64,000 nt of DNA, taken from sequence record OK570375. One strand, given 5' to 3'. The translations under genes and the position numbers were made by a program. The notes under the pieces are model-generated. The model was given only the letters and a program-made list of their open reading frames with translations. It was not told the DNA's origin and searched no databases. This document shows positions 39,479-47,974 of the stretch, piece by piece. The stretch is from Escherichia phage UoN_LDJ77_1. Each line of letters begins with the position of its first letter. The first letter of the stretch is position 1.

Positions 39479-41066
<1,588 letters not shown>

Positions 41067-41096
41067 AATAAAATGGGCCTTGCGGCCCACTCCTTA
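41067..41096 (-). promoter_or_regulatory. split ribosome-binding site of denA: AAGGAG, 14-nt hairpin, AUG
   Basis: Minus strand AAGGAG-UG-GGCCGCAAGGCCC-AUUUUAUU-AUG; GNRA-type hairpin between SD and ATG 41066. Confidence 0.5.
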
Positions 41097-41597
41097 AAAA
41101 TATTTTTTAAAACTCATCATAACTTTATCATCAACATCATTATCAATCTGTGCAACAAGATAAGATGACAGTTCTACTTCTTGTGGCGCGGATTGAACAT
41201 TATCAGAATTAAGGTATTCACGAATCCAAGGATATGGATGTTTAACCGGAGCATCGGTAATTGGGCATGGAAGACCGCACTGTTTCATACGAGATACAGT
41301 TAAATAATCAATAAAGCTCCACATGCTATTTGTATTTAATCCAGGAACATCGCCGTCTTTAAATAAATGAATTGCCCAATCTTTTTCTTGGCGGTTAACT
41401 TCCATGAAAATATCAACTGCTTCTTGTTCACACTCTTGAGCAATTTTAACCCATTCATCGCCATCAGTGCCAAGTTGAAGTTGACGAATAATATATTGGG
41501 TGCCTTTAAGGTGAAGCTGCTCATCACGTGCAATGAACTTCATAATCTTGGCATTACCTTCCATGATTTCCATATTCTTGTGGAAGTTAAAGGTACC
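41094..41597 (-). CDS. nrdB: ribonucleotide reductase beta subunit NrdB, exon 2 (5' boundary approximate)
   Basis: Aligns with NrdB C-terminal half (MEGNAK...ARDEQLH iron ligand); reading frame open upstream only to 41624. Confidence 0.85.
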   Translation of the reverse strand, partial: GTFNFHKNMEIMEGNAKIMKFIARDEQLHLKGTQYIIRQLQLGTDGDEWVKIAQECEQEAVDIFMEVNRQEKDWAIHLFKDGDVPGLNTNSMWSFIDYLTVSRMKQCGLPCPITDAPVKHPYPWIREYLNSDNVQSAPQEVELSSYLVAQIDNDVDDKVMMSFKKYF

Positions 41598-41732
41598 GTT
41601 ATGTTCGATTGAGCTCGCTAATTCTCAACCCGTTCTCTTATGAACTGCTACATATTACTATGCAGACCAGACTATATCACAATCCCAGAGGGATTCTCCC
41701 CATTTCGAGTCGCTTGACCCTACGTCCGAAGA

Positions 41733-42542
41733 CTAGTCGTTGAACCTTGCTTTACAATTGTCGCCGTGCCATCGTTTATATGTTGATGGTGATAAATCTT
41801 TCTTATCACAATATGGACAATTCAATTGAATTCTATTTGGATTTAATTTACATCTGTCATTATGTTTTAGATAAAATCCAGGACCTTTACCAATGTGACC
41901 GCAGAAATCACATGTGATTTCTTTTTGTGCAGGATGGGTCCCGTTCTTAACCATTTCTAATGTTTTTGCTGATGTTCTTTTCTTATGGTCTTCTGACAAG
42001 AAATGATGTGAACCGTCATTTACCCGTTTTGATTGAGTTTCTGACTGCATTTTACCACCGCAAAATACATGAGTACCTTCTTTTATAGCTGCAATATTGC
42101 GTTCTTTAACTTTTGCAATATGCTCAGCTTGTTGAAAATTATGTATACCTAATGCAACTCTATTTAAATTAGATTTACGCTGTATTTCACCGTCTAAAAG
42201 ATGAAATGTACCATTTTCTATCTTAGATTTAATAGAGGCAATATTTTTAGCTCGTACTTCAGGGATATTAAAAATCTGGATTTCTCTAGATTTTGCGGCT
42301 TTAGAAGCTAATTCAGAAATTTCTTCAGGAGAATATTTCATTCTAAGCTTTATAGCATGACAAGCCTGGTAATCTTTTTGAGCTAAATGTATATCATAAT
42401 GTTCCTGTATAGAAAGGCACATCAAATTATCTAAATCATTATTTTCACGGTTACCGTCTTTATGATGGATTTCGTATGTTCTTCCATCAGAATCTTTAGG
42501 TATAGGTCCGTTAGCATCTATCCAAATTTTTCTATAGTTCAA
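41733..42542 (-). CDS. I-TevIII-like HNH homing endonuclease with C-terminal zinc finger
   Basis: 269-aa ORF inside intron; HNH motif EIHHKDGNRENN...QEH; CDFCGH/CPYCDK zinc finger; apparent TTG start preceded by AAGAGGA. Confidence 0.8.
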   Translation of the reverse strand: MNYRKIWIDANGPIPKDSDGRTYEIHHKDGNRENNDLDNLMCLSIQEHYDIHLAQKDYQACHAIKLRMKYSPEEISELASKAAKSREIQIFNIPEVRAKNIASIKSKIENGTFHLLDGEIQRKSNLNRVALGIHNFQQAEHIAKVKERNIAAIKEGTHVFCGGKMQSETQSKRVNDGSHHFLSEDHKKRTSAKTLEMVKNGTHPAQKEITCDFCGHIGKGPGFYLKHNDRCKLNPNRIQLNCPYCDKKDLSPSTYKRWHGDNCKARFND

Positions 42543-42569
42543 TTGTGCATCCTCTTAAAAGTATAATCA

Positions 42570-42577
42570 TATTTATA
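42570..42577 (-). promoter_or_regulatory. late promoter TATAAATA inside nrdB intron (I-TevIII-like ORF)
   Basis: Minus-strand TATAAATA 28 nt upstream of endonuclease ORF start. Confidence 0.6.
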
Positions 42578-42688
42578 TTATACTAATTAAAGGTGCAAGC
42601 AAAACCTTGGCTGCTAGTTTTCCTATAAAGGACTTTCCAGCAATTAAAGGAGTTTTCGATAAACGTTACCGTTTAAAGGCGCATTTTA

Positions 42689-43363
42689 CGCAAAAGATAC
42701 ATAAAAACGAATAGCTTCTAAGGCATTAATAACGTGTAAACAGAGGTAAAGAGACTTCATTAAAGCACGTTTAGCTTCGGCTTCTTGTTTAATAGCTCGG
42801 TTTAAACGAAAGTCGGCATCAGGAGATTCTTTAGCTAGTTCTACAAATTCTTTAGCATTTTCCCATTCACGGGTTTTAACCAAGACATCATCATAATAGC
42901 GACCGATAGATTCAGCACGTTTCATGATAGCTTCATCTAATACAATCTCATCAAATACCTTCGATGGATCAGTATAAAGATTTCGCATGATATGAGTATA
43001 TGAACGACTGTGAATAGTTTCACTAAAAGTCCATGTAGCAACCCATGTATCAAGGCTTGGGTCTGAAATTAATGACATAAGTACAGCAGACGGCGCACGG
43101 CCCTGAATGCTATCCAAAAGTGATTGATACTTCAGGTTGTTAGTAAAAATATTTTGCTGATACTGAGGAAGCTTATTAAACTGTGCAGCATCCATCATTA
43201 AGTTTACTTCTTCGGGACGCCAGAAAAATGATAAGGACTTCTCTGTAAGTTCTTCAAATACTCGATGCCGTTGAATATCATAACGCGCAATACCAAGACC
43301 TGAACCAAAAAACATAGGTTCTTTTAAAACATCAACTGGATTTGTATTAAAAACTGTGCTCAT
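42689..43363 (-). CDS. nrdB: ribonucleotide reductase beta subunit NrdB, exon 1
   Basis: 225 codons ending ...RFYVSFA then in-frame stop inside the intron. Confidence 0.85.
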
Positions 43364-43414
43364 AAATTTTCCGCTTAGTTAATAGTTGGTGACTCGTCCA
43401 TGAGTCAAATTATA

Positions 43415-44404
43415 TCATAATTTACAGGATGAACAATCTTCAGCTTTTGGAGTTTCTATTTCATAATCATCAGTACCAGAACCATCACGGGTATTATGAT
43501 AATAGAAATTTTTTCCGCCAAAATACCAAAAATACAAAAGGTCATCAATCATTATTGACATTGGAACCTTGCCTTTAGGGAAGATTTGGGGGTCATAATA
43601 TGTATTCGCTGAAGCTGATTGACACACCCATTTCAGCATAATAGCTACCTGCGTAAGATAAGGTTTATTACCTTTCTTAGCTAATTTCCATGTATAGTCG
43701 TAAAGGTCTATGTTATGCTCAATATTGGGCACGACCTGATTAAAGGAGCCCTCTTTTGATTCTTTAACAGAGACTGGTCCACGTGGAGGCTCGATACCGT
43801 TTGTACTGTTAGAAACTTGGGAAGATGACTCACATGGCATAAGTGCTGATAATGTGCTATTACGGATGCCAAAGAGCTTAAGGTCTTCCCGCAGCGACGA
43901 CCAGTCACAAACGTATTTTGGAGCTGCGATTTGGTCAATCTTTTTATTGTACCAGTCGATAGGTAATTCGCCTCGAGACCAACGAGTGTCTGAATAATAT
44001 TCGCAAGGTCCTTTTTCTTTGGCGAGCTTAATGGATGCTTTAATGAGTCCATACTGTAATCTCTCAAATAGTTCATGTGTTAAATCGTTAGCATCTTCAT
44101 AAGAAGCAAAGTTACTTGCCAGCCAAGCTGCATAGTTAGTAACACCTACACCGAGGTTACGACGCTTTTTAGCTTTTTCTGCTTCAGGAACCGGATATCC
44201 TTGGTAATCCAAAAGATTATCAAGAGCACGAACTTGAACTTCTGCTAATTCATTAATTTTATCTTGGTCTTGCCAGTCAAAATTATCTAGTACGAATGCA
44301 GAGAGAGTACAAAGCCCCACTTCTCCCTTGTTTTCAATAACTTTTATTGTAGTATACTCATCATCTTCGTAAAATTCATCTACAAATTCATAATCAATAT
44401 TCAT
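43415..44404 (-). CDS. nrdA: ribonucleotide reductase alpha subunit, C-terminal part (NrdA-b or exon 2)
   Basis: 329-aa ORF; NrdA homology from GEVGLCTLSAF to C-terminal CSSCKL; first ~26 residues are acidic and not NrdA-like. Confidence 0.85.
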   Translation of the reverse strand: MNIDYEFVDEFYEDDEYTTIKVIENKGEVGLCTLSAFVLDNFDWQDQDKINELAEVQVRALDNLLDYQGYPVPEAEKAKKRRNLGVGVTNYAAWLASNFASYEDANDLTHELFERLQYGLIKASIKLAKEKGPCEYYSDTRWSRGELPIDWYNKKIDQIAAPKYVCDWSSLREDLKLFGIRNSTLSALMPCESSSQVSNSTNGIEPPRGPVSVKESKEGSFNQVVPNIEHNIDLYDYTWKLAKKGNKPYLTQVAIMLKWVCQSASANTYYDPQIFPKGKVPMSIMIDDLLYFWYFGGKNFYYHNTRDGSGTDDYEIETPKAEDCSSCKL

Positions 44405-45104
44405 TTAATTCTTTTACCTTTTTTCTAGTAATTCCTAAAGTTTTAGATGCTCGATGTATTGATTGATATTCTATACCGTTTATTTTTACAGCAATTAAGT
44501 TATGGGGTTTTAATCCCTTTGGATGAGGTTTACTGACGAAAACTAAATTATCAAGTTCTGAAATCTTATCCAATTTCTTACACTTAAATCCTTTGTGATG
44601 CGACCGTTTACCTTTACAAACGGCTGACATTGCAGATGGATTTAAATTATGCTCTTTACAAAATTCGTTAAGACCTCGATGAATTTCCTCATGACCATCC
44701 GGAAATGTAAACACCCAAGATGTTTGAAGTCGAGATTTAACTTCTGGAGACATAGGAATACCTTTGTTCCAAGCTGGTTTTCCTTTATTATTTTCAGATA
44801 CAGAAATAGCCAATTTTCTTCTAAGCCACCCATGGCGTTTATTGGTGTTCTTTCGTTCAATATTATCTTCAGAATAAACACACATCATATTAGCGGCAAA
44901 TATCAATTTATGATTATTTGGATATATCTTTACTAATAATTGATGAGCTATGTAATGCTCTTCTGGTGTCAAATCTACCAGGTTTTCCTTTGTATCAGAA
45001 CCACCAATACACAGAGGTATAATATGGTGTGATTCGGTATAGCAATCTAATTTTCTATTCTTAGCTTTAGAAATAAGGTTATTGTAAATTTTAAAATAAT
45101 CCAT
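44394..45104 (-). CDS. HNH endonuclease inserted within nrdA
   Basis: 236-aa ORF; HNH motif ESHHIIPLCIGGSDTKENLV...EEHYIAHQ; strong SD (AGAGGA) upstream. Confidence 0.85.
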   Translation of the reverse strand: MDYFKIYNNLISKAKNRKLDCYTESHHIIPLCIGGSDTKENLVDLTPEEHYIAHQLLVKIYPNNHKLIFAANMMCVYSEDNIERKNTNKRHGWLRRKLAISVSENNKGKPAWNKGIPMSPEVKSRLQTSWVFTFPDGHEEIHRGLNEFCKEHNLNPSAMSAVCKGKRSHHKGFKCKKLDKISELDNLVFVSKPHPKGLKPHNLIAVKINGIEYQSIHRASKTLGITRKKVKELNEY

Positions 45105-45149
45105 AACTTTTCCTCTTGTTATGGATTATTTATTAACGGTCTGTGTACT

Positions 45150-46583
45150 TTATTTGCTTTGAATTATACCGCCAGGATTAGCTTCATAAAACTTAGCTAC
45201 ATCCGACTTCTTAATTTTGATTAAACGAGTTTGTTGGCTATTCACATCATTTGTTGGAATAGCAATTTCACAACATAAGTTACTCTGACGAATAGGTGCC
45301 TTTTCACGAATAAACGGAGTATAGTTATTCGTATTATCAATGAACTGTACATAAATCCTTGCTGTTCCTGAACGTTCAGTCATGAGCAATTCAAATAGTT
45401 CACGGGCTTTAATACGCTTTTTACGAATATTAGGGTCTTTTTCTGCTGCTTCGTATAATTCACGGAAACGGTCTTGGTCTTTAAAATAAGAATAATAAAG
45501 CTCGCCACCCATTTCATGCGGACTGAACAAAGTAATGTAATCGTTCTTTCCGAATCGTTCCATCATCAAATCATTCAGCTGAACACCATAATCCATATGA
45601 CGGATACGGTTTTCTTCTACGCCTTTGTTATTTTTCAAAACGAGAAGATTTTCAACTTCCAAATGCCAAATAGGATAATAAGCAGTAGCAGCGCCGCCAC
45701 GAATTCCGCCCTGTGAGCATGATTTAACAGCAGTCTGAAAATGTTTCCAAAAAGGAATAACCCCAGTATGGCGTACTTCACCCATGCCAATCTTAGAACC
45801 TTCGGCACGAATCATACCAACGTTAATACCAATTCCAGCGCGTTTAGAGATATATTCAACAATTGAAGCGGAAGCCTTATTGATAGACTTCAGCGAATCA
45901 CCTGCCTCAATAACAACACATGAACTAAACTGTCGAGTCGGAGTACGACAACCAGCCATAATAGGAGTTGGCAGTGAAATCTGTCGAGTAGATACTGCTT
46001 CATAAAAACGGATAACATGTTTTAATCTATCAACAGGTTCATCTTGATGCAATGCCATTCCAATAGCCATAAATGCAAACTGTGGAGTTTCATAAATTTG
46101 ACCAGTGGTTTTATCTTTAACTAGATATTTTTCTTTTAATTGCATCGCCCCAGAATAAGTAAATTCCATATCCCGTTCATGCTTAATTTTTGATTCTAAA
46201 AATGTAATTTCTTCTGCTGAATATTTTGACAATAATTCAGGGTCATATTTACCTTCATTTACACAGTAAGAAATATGGTCAATAAATGAACGTGGTTCAT
46301 ACTGCCCATAAACATGCTTACGAAGAGCGAACATTAAACAGCGTGCAGCTACATATTGATAATCAGGCTCTTCAACCGAAATAGAATTCGCAGCAGCCTT
46401 AATGACAATAGTCTGAATGTCATCAGTTGTCATTCCATCACGGAGATATGATTTAATATTTTCATATAATTCATAAGGATCTACTGATGTTCCCTCAGAT
46501 GCCCAAGATAAAACTTTAATAATTTTTTGCGGGTCAAAGCTCTGAGAAACACCACTACTTTTGATAACATTAATTAATTGCAT
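45150..46583 (-). CDS. nrdA: ribonucleotide reductase alpha subunit, N-terminal part (NrdA-a or exon 1)
   Basis: 477-aa ORF; NrdA homology through active-site motif SNLCCEIAIPTNDVN; last ~30 residues not NrdA-like. Confidence 0.85.
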   Translation of the reverse strand: MQLINVIKSSGVSQSFDPQKIIKVLSWASEGTSVDPYELYENIKSYLRDGMTTDDIQTIVIKAAANSISVEEPDYQYVAARCLMFALRKHVYGQYEPRSFIDHISYCVNEGKYDPELLSKYSAEEITFLESKIKHERDMEFTYSGAMQLKEKYLVKDKTTGQIYETPQFAFMAIGMALHQDEPVDRLKHVIRFYEAVSTRQISLPTPIMAGCRTPTRQFSSCVVIEAGDSLKSINKASASIVEYISKRAGIGINVGMIRAEGSKIGMGEVRHTGVIPFWKHFQTAVKSCSQGGIRGGAATAYYPIWHLEVENLLVLKNNKGVEENRIRHMDYGVQLNDLMMERFGKNDYITLFSPHEMGGELYYSYFKDQDRFRELYEAAEKDPNIRKKRIKARELFELLMTERSGTARIYVQFIDNTNNYTPFIREKAPIRQSNLCCEIAIPTNDVNSQQTRLIKIKKSDVAKFYEANPGGIIQSK

Positions 46584-46900: not shown

Positions 46901-47117
46901 ATTGTTTTTCCGTTAAAACAGTAATATCGTAGTAACAGTCAGAAGAAGTTTTAACTGTGGAAATTTTATTATCAAAATACTCACGAGTCATTTTATGAGT
47001 ATAGTATTTTTTACCATAAATGATAATAGGCTGTTCTGGTCCTGGAACTTCTAACTCGCTTGGGTTAGGAAGTGTAAAAAGAACAACGCCAGAAGTATCT
47101 TTAAATCGTAAAATCAT
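46854..47117 (-). CDS. hypothetical protein
   Basis: 87-aa ORF overlapping downstream ORF by 47 nt in a different frame. Confidence 0.45.
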
Positions 47118-47974
47118 ATTGCCATTTTCCCTTTAATTGCTGGATGCGATTCATAATTTTCAAGGATAAAATCTTTCGGTTTCATGTATTCAGTTAACCA
47201 GTAAAGCTGTGTTTCGGTGTCACAATTTCCAAACTCTATAGGCCAATCAATTTTAAGTTCACACAGTTCTTTAGGCTCACGACGTAAAATTTCTTTACAT
47301 TGTTCTACGTGATTCATATAGATATGAGTATTACCACCAGAAAATATCAAATCTCCTGGGATAAGATTACACATCTTAGCTACAATATGAACTAGTGCAG
47401 CATATGATGCAATATTAAATGGAAGACCGAGGAAAACATCTACTGATCGTTGATACCACTGAAGGTCAAGGTATCCATTACGAACATTAAATTGATAAAA
47501 CATATGACAAGGCGGTAATGCCATCTGCTTGAGTTCAGCTGGATTCCATGCTGAAACAATTTGACGCCTATCATTTGGCAGTTTTTTAATACGATCAATA
47601 ACTTCTATAATTTGGTCTACACCACCAAAATCACGCCACTGTTTTCCATAAATTGGACCAAGTTCACCACTATGGTATCCTAAATCTTTTGCTTGATTTT
47701 CGTAATTTTCATCCCAGACTGTTTTGCCTTGGATTAACGAATCATGCTGAATTAATCGTAAATCATTGACATTTGTGCTTCCTGATAAGAACCACAATAA
47801 CTCAGAAATGCAAGCTTTCCAGGCGAGCTTTTTAGTTGTTACTGCAGGAAAACCTTTGGTTAAATCCCAACGCAATTTAGTACCGAACAAAGCAATTGTT
47901 CCTGTGCCTGTTCGGTCATCAGTTTCATAACCATTTTCAAAAATGTCTTTAATTAAATCTTGGTATTGTTTCAT
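47114..47974 (-). CDS. td: thymidylate synthase (uninterrupted)
   Basis: Contiguous 286-aa ORF with active-site LPPCH; no intron. Confidence 0.95.

Follow-up and report, generated by a model that had tools for sequence, protein, structure and literature searches.

An RB3-type group IA intron with a full-length I-TevIII reading frame in nrdB of Escherichia phage UoN_LDJ77_1

What interrupts the nrdB gene of Escherichia phage UoN_LDJ77_1, and is the interrupting element intact? We addressed this question in a 64,000-nucleotide stretch of DNA (record OK570375; the whole stretch is called the window here), which is that of a Tequatrovirus (T4-like phage). Our results indicate, with a probability of about 0.95, that the insert is a full-length mobile group IA intron of the T4-family nrdB, of the RB3 type, which encodes an intact I-TevIII homing endonuclease. 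The RB3-type intron, I-TevIII, its TTG start and the internal promoter are all documented already. For this copy the analysis draws on sequence identity, structure and covariation, hairpin energetics, the conservation of residues and motifs, and the fixation of the TTG codon; the activity and homing of I-TevIII are carried over from RB3, the mapping of the promoters from T4 and the effect of translation on splicing from the td intron, and would hold here by analogy. All the features described below lie on the minus strand.

Splice junction and ribozyme of the nrdB intron

The nrdB gene begins 50 nt from nrdA, which lies upstream, and is split into exon 1 (43363..42688), the intron (42687..41597) and exon 2 (41596..41094). 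Exon 1, delimited by its reading frame and the splice junction, comprises 676 nt and ends in TTT GCG T, while exon 2, which starts with GT ACC TTT AAC, has the same length as exon 2 of T4 (503 nt). At the 5′ splice site, the final T of exon 1 (42688) supplies the U of the U.G wobble, and it is also the first base of a Cys codon that is divided between the exons (T|GT), with the GT supplied by exon 2. The intron has 1091 nt and 34.6% GC, starts with AAAATGCGCC and ends in CATAACG, with its terminal G at 41597. Its excision yields an unbroken NrdB of 392 aa that reads ...RFYVSFA-C-TFNFHKNMEIMEGNAK... across the predicted ligated junction 42688|41596 (...TTTTGCGT|GTACCTTT...). Once ligated, the exons align colinearly with the RB33 allele, which naturally has no intron, matching it in 77 of 80 nt over the junction, and the protein at the junction is the same as in RB33 (...FYVSFACTFNFHK). 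The first-pass annotation had placed the insert at 41598-42688; the length holds, but both ends are displaced by 1 nt because the split Cys codon was overlooked.

That the insert is a group I intron, as had been proposed, is borne out by its near identity to a known intron and by covariance and structural evidence. By megablast, it is 99.8% identical over the full 1091 nt to the nrdB intron of RB3 (KM606994, X59078, AY262130). In a permissive search of the local region, the 3′ core of the intron matched the Rfam family RF00028 with 29.8 bits (E = 2.4e-5), below the gathering threshold of 50 bits, because the 810-nt reading frame interrupts the covariance model. Naturally occurring alleles of this intron that have no ORF or are shortened, and that are 99%, 91% and 94% identical to it in the shared parts, scored 68.6, 74.1 and 57.9 bits, all above the threshold. 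Scans of the whole window against Rfam at the gathering threshold or at E <= 0.01 gave no match; as the intron is found only by the permissive local search or through its ORF-less alleles, a negative scan of this kind cannot exclude ORF-bearing introns. The assignment to RF00028 thus draws on the ORF-less alleles and on a structure that we built manually.

The manual IA structure spans P1 to P9.2 with 86 pairs, of which 99.8% are paired among the aligned alleles, and it contains nine compensatory pairs, a number reached in none of 500 shuffles; when the structure was slid along the alignment as a control, 35-45% of positions paired and the compensatory pairs fell to zero. In P1 (42679..42691), the exon sequence GCGU (42691..42688) forms four pairs with the guide sequence GCGC (42682..42679) across an AAAAU loop, and both the U(42688).G(42682) wobble and the terminal G of the intron at 41597 are invariant in six alleles. 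The 5′ half of the ribozyme (42599..42675), drawn from the Rfam alignment, RNAalifold and pair counts, holds P2 (42675..42660) and P4/P5 (42642..42612), with compensatory changes in P2 and P5, and the 5′ strands of P3 (42652..42649), P6 (42611..42609) and P6a (42605..42599). The 3′ half (41607..41755) carries the conserved core motifs GUUCAACGACUA and GAUAUAGUCU of the Rfam alignment. It contains the 3′ strands of P6a (41755..41749) and P6 (41746..41744), the 5′ strand of P7 (41738..41734), the 3′ strand of P3 (41699..41696), P8 (41694..41682), the 3′ strand of P7 (41674..41670) and P9.1 (41645..41632), and compensatory pairs are found in P9 (41665..41648) and P9.2 (41630..41607). Between P7 and the 3′ strand of P3 lie the extra helices P7.1 (41733..41724, GUC-UUCG-GAC) and P7.2 (41720..41707, GGGUC-AAGC-GACUC, with a U-A to C-G compensatory change in DCP80), whose presence places the intron in subgroup IA; the T4 record labels the same intron "group 1A intron".

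Besides P2, P5, P7.2, P9 and P9.2, the upper stem of the Shine-Dalgarno (SD) hairpin described below also contains a compensatory pair. P3, P4, P6, P7 and P7.1 are invariant, and P8 changes on one side only (C-G to U-G) and remains paired; these helices are consistent with the structure, and covariation gives them no independent support. By eye, P10 comprises at most two pairs (GU of the 3′ exon against the P1 loop AAAAU), too weak to fix the 3′ splice site. Some alternative pairings were discarded. The register UUGCUU/AAGCAA for P6a is broken by a G-to-A variant of T4 and DCP80, which in the adopted register converts a U.G into a U-A pair. Two helices proposed by RNAalifold, one between the two exons and the other pairing GGAUUGU with AUAGUCU, were dropped in favor of P8 and the P3/P7 pseudoknot of the Rfam alignment. 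The T4 nrdB intron reportedly splices autocatalytically in a guanosine-initiated reaction, as described in literature of 1986 that PMC2790892 cites. By the same route, the 1091-nt intron would fold into the P1-P9.2 ribozyme, excise itself and leave the exons joined to encode the 392-aa NrdB, with the 810-nt reading frame and its own expression signals housed in the P6a loop.

The I-TevIII reading frame, its start codon and its alleles

The reading frame (41733..42542) extends over 810 nt from a TTG to a TAG codon and encodes 269 aa; its final eight codons overlap the 3′ strands of P6a and P6, J6/7 and the 5′ strand of P7. The protein is identical in 268 of 269 residues to the biochemically characterized I-TevIII of RB3, the sole difference being D23Y, and it matches phrog_12324, "intron-like DNA endonuclease", over residues 1-269 of 269 (E = 1.9e-193). 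An HNH catalytic domain (42399..42533, aa 4-48) was identified with the Pfam profile HNH_3 (E = 6e-13, profile positions 5-44 of 46), and a regular expression located two zinc fingers of the form CX2CX12-13HX3C (41754..41912, aa 211-231 and 242-263), which constitute the DNA-binding and dimerization domain (PMC1865063). Counting from the TTG, residues H26, H27, N39, H48, C211, C214, C242 and C245 are at their published positions, and H26, H27, N39 and H48 are the residues at which catalytic mutants of I-TevIII were defined (Robbins 2007, PMC1865063). The claim of a full-length I-TevIII-like HNH and zinc-finger endonuclease is thereby upheld. For the RB3 protein, enzyme activity, dimerization, cleavage with a 2-nt 3′ overhang and intron homing have been demonstrated, and the recombinant proteins were produced from T7 vectors (PMC1865063). 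At the DNA level the enzyme encoded here would likewise act as a dimer, with its HNH nuclease domain at the N-terminus and its two zinc fingers at the C-terminus.

A search of the PDB with the I-TevIII sequence returned a chance match only (E = 0.29), with no solved relative recognizable by sequence. A Pfam match to FlgM at aa 74-114 (26.2 bits against a cutoff of 25) was discarded as spurious, the NCBIfam FlgM model giving 18 against a cutoff of 40.75. The same region, aa 74-114, is part of a series of short repeats ending in G-x-H.

The TTG (42542..42540) is the first start codon past an in-frame TAA located five codons upstream, and it is preceded by the SD sequence AAGAGGA (42550..42556) with a spacer of 7 nt. 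The nearby ATG opens an out-of-frame mini-ORF, ATG CAC AAT TGA (42539..42550), which lies within and beside the 3′ arm of the SD hairpin and is invariant in six of six aligned alleles; the SD directly adjoins its ATG, and its TGA shares bases with the TTG. In the RNA, the UUG contributes its first U to the end of the AAU codon and its UG to the start of the UGA stop. The TTG start, SD and out-of-frame ATG thus agree with what had been proposed, and I-TevIII is annotated from the same TTG in the GenBank records X59078 and KM606994. A literature search combining I-TevIII and a UUG start found no mention of it, in vivo initiation at UUG being undocumented there, and a review gives an "AUG initiation codon" for all three endonucleases (PMC2988022). 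In this phage, initiation at the UUG is what the sequence predicts.

Comparison of the alleles shows how the reading frame can be lost. The full-length form of the intron is present in 84 phage records (megablast). In T4, the same intron is reduced to 598 nt by a 491-nt deletion (window positions 42478..41988) and two 1-nt indels. A 7-nt direct repeat, ACAATTG, occurs at 42540..42546, where it includes the TTG start, and at 41761..41755, and recombination between the two copies yields exactly the ORF-less alleles of PD112 and DCP80. The proposal that T4 has a truncated I-TevIII and RB3 a 269-aa version proved correct in the records of both phages and in the sequence comparison.

Three other explanations of the locus were weighed against an intact intron that is read from the TTG. 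The insert might be no intron at all, with nrdB divided into genes in pieces by a free-standing endonuclease; nrdA, 50 nt upstream in the same window, has this arrangement, and many GenBank records annotate two separate nrdB coding sequences. We give this reading practically no weight, as the reading frame is flanked by non-coding sequence (~145 nt upstream and ~135 nt downstream) that forms a group I core supported by covariation, exon 1 terminates in a split codon with no stop-and-start logic, a C-terminal NrdB piece begun at its first ATG would be without its first nine residues, and the curators of T4 and RB3 annotated a join. It is also very improbable that the endonuclease starts at another codon or that the TTG is a sequencing error for ATG. 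TTG starts are rare and the truncated ORF of T4 is annotated from the nearby ATG, but that ATG is in another frame and is usable in T4 only because the 491-nt deletion shifts the frame. In paired megablast queries, the same 60-mer across the TTG was found in 90 independent GenBank records (identity of at least 99%), whereas no record matched its ATG variant at full coverage; a pattern scan of IMG/VR around the start gave a single contig. S16, which is 11% diverged, retains the TTG, the 7-nt SD spacing suits the TTG alone, the HNH_3 match begins already at residue 4, and a start at the next in-frame ATG (codon 41), downstream of the in-frame TAA, would delete H26, H27 and N39. Hardly more credible is a decaying relic as in T4, which still splices and encodes a nonfunctional endonuclease, for example through D23Y near the HNH histidines. 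Independent inactivating deletions of the ORF are common (T4 with 491 nt, SG1, PD112 and DCP80), and residue 23, three residues before the catalytic H26, differs from the RB3 enzyme that was tested. Against decay, the reading frame is full length with every catalytic and zinc-binding residue kept, Tyr23 is shared with the S16 allele, and the 57 synonymous against 28 non-synonymous codon differences from S16 argue for purifying selection. Moreover, this copy retains an intact promoter, SD and hairpin, whereas loss of TATAAATA has begun in alleles with a deleted ORF.

Expression signals upstream of the reading frame

Just upstream of the reading frame, a T4-type late promoter core, TATAAATA, occupies 42577..42570 and is separated from the TTG by 27 nt, as expected from the proposal of an internal late promoter. 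The window has 19 copies of this octamer, where 8.3 would be expected (2.3-fold enrichment), which alone is only modest evidence; it is conserved in S16, DCP80 and T4, and damaged or lost in the ORF-deleted PD112 and SG1. Just upstream of the late promoter and abutting it, we found a middle-promoter-like element (42577..42604) composed of the MotA-box-like sequence TTTTGCTTGC (42604..42595), a 12-nt spacer and TATAAT (42582..42577). TTTTGCTTGC fits 8 of 10 positions of the MotA-box consensus. In the fPS-2 record, the equivalent 25 nt are annotated as "predicted middle promoter", and, according to a review, primer extension has located both middle and late promoters in T4 (PMC2988022). Transcription of I-TevIII is thus probably middle and late and not strictly late.

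The region also contains a hairpin that sequesters the SD (42546..42597), in which the 5′ arm, UGCACCUUU...AGUAUAA, pairs with UUAUACU...AGAGGAUGCA. Most of the mini-ORF (AUG CAC AAU UGA) forms the 3′ arm of this regulatory hairpin. The apical part of the hairpin contains the late promoter, and RNA started internally is therefore without the 5′ arm. In silico, the hairpin in read-through RNA has a folding energy of −14.9 kcal/mol (z = −3.85, 0 of 200 shuffles), compared with −1.4 kcal/mol for RNA starting after TATAAATA. Its two helices (helices 8 and 9 of the alignment) are 100% and 97.6% paired in six alleles, with one compensatory pair. The hairpin had been overlooked in the first-pass annotation.

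A hairpin that hides the SD, together with internal promoters, is the published timing mechanism of the T4 intron ORFs (PMC2988022, PMC3014915), whose expression cassette was described by Gott et al. 1988 as summarized in PMC2988022. Applied to this phage, when transcription enters from early or middle promoters further upstream, the SD of the resulting pre-mRNA would be buried in the hairpin, while RNA from the internal promoters (TATAAATA, and the MotA-box-like sequence with TATAAT) would be without the 5′ arm and would expose the SD and the UUG. Expression of the reading frame would in this way be uncoupled from that of nrdB. As ribosomes would be kept off the reading frame on the precursor, the folding of the region from P6a to P7 would be protected as well; an effect of translation on splicing has been demonstrated for the td intron (PMC2988022, PMC3014915). 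We infer the timing of expression in this phage by analogy with these systems.

The endonuclease had been proposed to be restricted to late infection by the non-canonical TTG start and the late promoter. Delayed expression is supported, while the weak codon as its cause is not, the published reason being the SD hairpin, which is present here. That late restriction results mainly from the weak TTG and the late promoter, without a switch in RNA structure, is unlikely. In favor of this reading, the TTG does not vary between alleles and TATAAATA stands at the right position. A start codon, however, is unable to tell early from late transcripts, as the hairpin can: it folds stably when transcription reads through and is missing when RNA starts internally. 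The hairpin is also conserved with a compensatory change, the same mechanism has been described for all three T4 intron endonucleases (PMC2988022, PMC3014915), and the middle-promoter-like element that abuts the late promoter makes it probable that transcription is not only late. Only slightly less doubtful is the idea that initiation depends on the arrangement of UUG and mini-ORF, for example through termination-reinitiation or ribosome standby on the opened hairpin, and that the weak UUG was selected to keep ribosome traffic low between the 3′ strand of P6a and P7, so that even late precursor RNAs splice. Independently of the switch, the TTG may still reduce the overall yield of I-TevIII.

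Overlapping these signals is a putative I-TevIII operator, AGGTTTTGCTTGCACCTTTAA (42587..42607), which is identical in 17 of 21 positions to the homing site of intron-less nrdB, ATCTTTTGCGT|GTACCTTTAA. The match is modestly significant, 17/21 being reached by 2 of 200 shuffles. A homing-site-like sequence has been proposed as the I-TevIII operator (PMC2988022, Fig. 4B text), and the resemblance suggests that I-TevIII may repress its own expression at this site in the present phage.

Relation to known intron endonucleases and meaning of the locus

The closest known system is the nrdB intron of RB3 with its I-TevIII, reportedly described by Eddy & Gold 1991 and studied by Robbins et al. 2007 (PMC1865063). 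It shares the gene, the insertion site and the length of 1091 nt with the present intron, from which it differs in 2 nt: the change behind D23Y and one synonymous change (TGC to TGT, Cys265). Its 269-aa ORF also starts at this TTG, and the SD, hairpin and promoters are the same. The flanking nrdB exons are ~2-3% diverged from those of RB3, and RB3 has mobE between nrdA and nrdB, whereas UoN_LDJ77_1 is without mobE there.

The T4 nrdB intron (NC_000866) has the same ribozyme, splice sites, promoters, SD and hairpin, but the loss of 491 nt of its ORF takes away the HNH domain and causes a frameshift: the frame opened by the TTG ends after 22 codons, and the remnant annotated in T4, of 97 aa, begins at the out-of-frame ATG. 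Having no mobility of its own, the T4 intron relies on MobE (PMC2790892). The td intron of T4 with I-TevI is, like the element described here, a phage group IA intron with a looped-out endonuclease ORF and an internal late promoter. Its read-through RNA likewise forms a hairpin that hides the SD, its operator is similar to the homing site, as is the putative operator here, and in td delayed translation protects the folding of P6, P6a and P7 (PMC2988022, PMC3014915). Unlike I-TevIII, I-TevI is a monomeric GIY-YIG enzyme with an AUG start, and its host gene is different; the td gene of this window has no intron. I-HmuI and other HNH intron endonucleases of the Bacillus phage SPO1 family resemble I-TevIII: they too are encoded in a phage group I intron and combine an HNH module with modular DNA-binding repeats. 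HNH endonucleases known before I-TevIII made no double-strand break in this way, whereas I-TevIII dimerizes through its zinc-finger domain and cuts both strands (PMC1865063).

The main value of this analysis lies in annotation quality. In many deposited genomes, the same element appears as two "ribonucleotide reductase beta" coding sequences and a hypothetical protein; the correct gene model for this phage is nrdB = join(43363..42688, 41596..41094) on the minus strand, with an intron feature and with I-TevIII at 42542..41733, read from the TTG. The locus opens no new question. It adds one more natural example in which a textbook element is intact and presumably mobile, and it supports the picture of the laboratory allele of T4 as the degenerate one.

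The nrdB intron and its ribozyme

The first NrdB-like ORF (43363..42686, minus strand) runs into a TAA directly after ...RFYVSFA, and a second NrdB-homologous stretch begins ~1.09 kb downstream on the same strand. In-silico excision of 42687..41597 (1091 nt) produced an unbroken 392-aa NrdB reading ...RFYVSFA-C-TFNFHKNMEIMEGNAK..., which bears out the insert proposed in the first-pass annotation. Its limits of 41598-42688 had the right length, but each was one base off, because the Cys codon at the exon junction is divided T|GT. The predicted joined-exon sequence is found without interruption in many related phages, and the intron-less nrdB of phage RB33 matches the predicted junction at 77 of 80 nt, its protein reading ...FYVSFACTFNFHK.... 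At the end of exon 1 (42689, -2 from the splice site) the intron-containing alleles have GCG-U, which pairs perfectly with the guide GCGC, whereas RB33 has the synonymous GCA-U, which would give an A.C mismatch in helix P1; the exon beside the insertion site thus varies with intron presence.

An Rfam scan of the whole window returned no match. In a permissive local search, the group I model RF00028 gave 29.8 bits (E = 2.4e-5) over the 3' core, under the 50-bit threshold because the ORF interrupts the intron. The threshold was exceeded by natural alleles of this intron in which most or all of the ORF is gone: those of phages PD112 (304 nt), DCP80 (309 nt) and SG1 (420 nt) scored 68.6, 74.1 and 57.9 bits. 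We then aligned six alleles, with the ORF cut out identically from each, and drew a group IA structure manually, guided by the Rfam alignment and by RNAalifold. It contains 86 pairs with 99.8% of cells paired, and nine pairs (in P2, P5, the Shine-Dalgarno (SD) hairpin, P7.2, P9 and P9.2) show changes on both sides, a result reached by none of 500 shuffles; slid controls were 35-45% paired with zero compensatory changes. In P1, exon GCGU lies against intron GCGC, and the 5' splice site shows the canonical U.G pair; the terminal intron base is G, and P10 has two pairs at most, judged by eye. The intron belongs to subgroup IA, marked by P7.1 and P7.2, in agreement with the T4 record. The P6a loop holds the ORF plus its signals, and the final eight codons (TGT AAA GCA AGG TTC AAC GAC TAG) overlap P6a', P6', J6/7 and the 5' strand of P7.

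UoN_LDJ77_1 is a Tequatrovirus whose nrdB region is 97-99% identical to that of many T4-like phages. The insert is 99.8% identical to the nrdB intron of phage RB3 (KM606994; original deposit X59078; AY262130), from which it differs at two bases, 42476 and 41754, and 84 phage records carry this full-length form. The T4 intron is the same apart from two single-base indels and a 491-nt deletion (window 42478..41988), which account for its known length of 598 nt; as a result the TTG frame there ends after 22 codons, and an out-of-frame ATG begins the 97-aa ORF annotated as 'defective I-TevIII'. The truncated T4 and 269-aa RB3 versions named at first pass are correct. Separately, the last ~89 nt of the intron (41598..41687, P9.1-P9.2 region) match Pseudoalteromonas phage pYD6-A with 86.5% identity (NC_020849.1, 16993..17079) inside a gene annotated 'ATPase'; neither that phage nor the gene is related, and the match may mark a related group I intron there.

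The I-TevIII protein and its TTG start

The intron ORF (42542..41733, minus strand, 269 aa from a TTG) matches Pfam HNH_3 at residues 4-48 (E = 6e-13) and PHROG 12324 'intron-like DNA endonuclease' over 1-269 of the 269-position profile (E = 1.9e-193). RB3 I-TevIII belongs to the HNH enzymes, carries two CX2CX12-13HX3C zinc fingers, binds as a dimer and drives homing (Robbins et al. 2007, PMC1865063). The protein encoded here is identical to it at 268 of 269 residues, the sole difference being D23Y. Numbered from the TTG, all eight residues mutated in the RB3 enzyme (H26, H27, N39, H48, C211, C214, C242 and C245; PMC1865063) sit at exactly the published positions, congruent with the full-length HNH and zinc-finger endonuclease seen at first pass. 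Y23 also occurs in phage S16, whose ORF differs by 10.4% in protein sequence, with 57 synonymous vs 28 non-synonymous codon differences indicating purifying selection. Residues 74-114 (42200..42322) barely pass the Pfam cutoff for FlgM (anti-sigma-28; 26.2 vs 25 bits, E = 9e-6). This identity looks spurious: the NCBIfam FlgM model scores 18 against a cutoff of 40.75, and the region (aa 74-114 and 114-205) lies in an array of short repeats, each closing with G-(I/T/S)-H (aa 132, 156, 177 and 201), that are probably modular DNA-binding units.

The TTG is the first start codon following an in-frame TAA five codons upstream, and lies 7 nt from the SD AAGAGGA (42556..42550). As noted at first pass, the ATG adjoining the SD is out of frame (ATG CAC AAT TGA); in frame, no further ATG occurs before codon 41, which lies past three of the four catalytic residues. 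The same TTG is used in GenBank X59078 (CAA41802) and KM606994 (AIT72961), a 60-mer across it is at least 99% identical in 90 phage records, and the S16 allele keeps the TTG, the SD and the hairpin. A conventional in-frame ATG, the alternative raised in the first-pass annotation, found no support: the 60-mer with ATG replacing TTG had zero identical full-coverage matches, the best (98.3%) being the one engineered mismatch. Judged by the SD, the frame, the GenBank entries, the 60-mer and S16, the TTG start is real, fixed and already accepted annotation. Our literature search found no paper remarking on it and no direct proof of in-vivo UUG initiation; one review loosely ascribes an 'AUG initiation codon' to the three T4 intron endonucleases alike (PMC2988022).

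Promoters, expression timing and ORF loss

The late promoter TATAAATA (42577..42570, minus strand) lies inside the intron and is separated from the TTG by 27 nt. Immediately upstream we found TTTTGCTTGC, 12 nt and TATAAT (42604..42577, minus strand), sharing one base, the first of TATAAATA, with the late promoter. This arrangement resembles a MotA-dependent middle promoter. Exactly the same stretch is annotated as a predicted middle promoter in the fPS-2 record. For this class of gene, a review describes a stable RNA structure that hides the ribosome-binding site when transcription starts at promoters further upstream, and operator-like copies of the homing site that overlap the promoters (PMC2988022). 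By sequence and in-silico folding, the features stated there are present in the window. In read-through RNA a predicted hairpin pairs CCUUU with AGAGG (-14.9 kcal/mol, z = -3.85, 0/200 shuffles) and is conserved with one compensatory pair, while RNA beginning just after TATAAATA is unstructured (-1.4 kcal/mol); a putative operator at 42607..42587 matches the homing site at 17 of 21 positions (2/200 shuffles).

The first-pass annotation had proposed that the TTG and the late promoter together restrict expression to late infection. The promoter is there, but the hairpin and the middle-promoter evidence render this explanation incomplete: transcription of the ORF is probably middle and late, the discriminating device would be the SD hairpin, and the TTG can only lower yield. 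According to the part of PMC3014915 summarising Gibb & Edgell 2010, splicing of the td intron needs delayed translation because ribosomes disturb P6, P6a and P7. Since the 3' end of the I-TevIII ORF overlaps P6a' to P7, the same logic would apply to the nrdB intron.

ACAATTG repeats lie at both ends of the ORF, at 42546..42540 (containing the TTG) and 41761..41755 (near the ORF end), and the ORF-less introns of PD112 and DCP80 are the exact product expected from recombination between the two copies. Different internal deletions are found in SG1 and T4, which indicates that the endonuclease gene was lost independently several times. In PD112 and SG1 the late promoter is also damaged or lost, which fits a promoter serving the ORF.

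Neighbouring genes and annotation

Immediately upstream of nrdB, nrdA (43415..46583, minus strand) is in two pieces around a mob-type HNH endonuclease. The N-piece (46583..45150, minus strand, 477 aa) terminates in ...SNLCCEIAIPTNDVNS and a basic tail; the HNH/NUMOD ORF follows (45104..44394, minus strand, 236 aa), its N-terminal 99 aa 49% identical to RB3 MobE; the C-piece (44404..43415, minus strand, 329 aa) has an acidic tail, then GEVGLC32TLSAF. With only 45 nt before the endonuclease start and an 11-nt overlap with the C-piece, the interruption does not qualify as an intron or as an obvious intein. The gene is divided between the residues equivalent to Cys439 and Cys462, where the split also lies in Aeromonas phage Aeh1, whose nrdA-a/mobE/nrdA-b is a 'genes in pieces' case (PMC3045599), and the pieces have Aeh1-like oppositely charged tails. 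The arrangement occurs in 34 of 621 related GenBank phage records (e.g. vB_EcoM_112, HY01, fPS-2 and phiD1), and our literature search found no paper describing it in coliphages. The nrdA stop and the nrdB start are only 51 nt apart (43364..43414). The free-standing mobE that T4 and RB3 have between these genes is absent, the mob-type endonuclease lying inside nrdA instead. The thymidylate synthase gene td (47114..47974, minus strand) is an unbroken 286-aa ORF; the td intron and I-TevI of T4 are thus missing from UoN_LDJ77_1. The nrdB stop is followed directly by a GC-rich hairpin GGGCCGCAAGGCCC and then a T-rich run (41062..41100, minus strand), annotated as a terminator in fPS-2. When the downstream denA ORF is read from a GTG (144 aa), this hairpin lies inside it, which makes the ATG at 41066, giving the 136-aa form annotated in RB3, the more plausible start.

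The nrdB intron element was described in 1986-1991. The feature in the window is one more copy of this known element, biochemically characterised in 2007; the original observation is confirmed and its interpretation supported, subject to the corrections on limits and timing. Its practical value lies in the correct annotation, with nrdB joined and I-TevIII starting from the TTG, which is missing in many deposited genomes.
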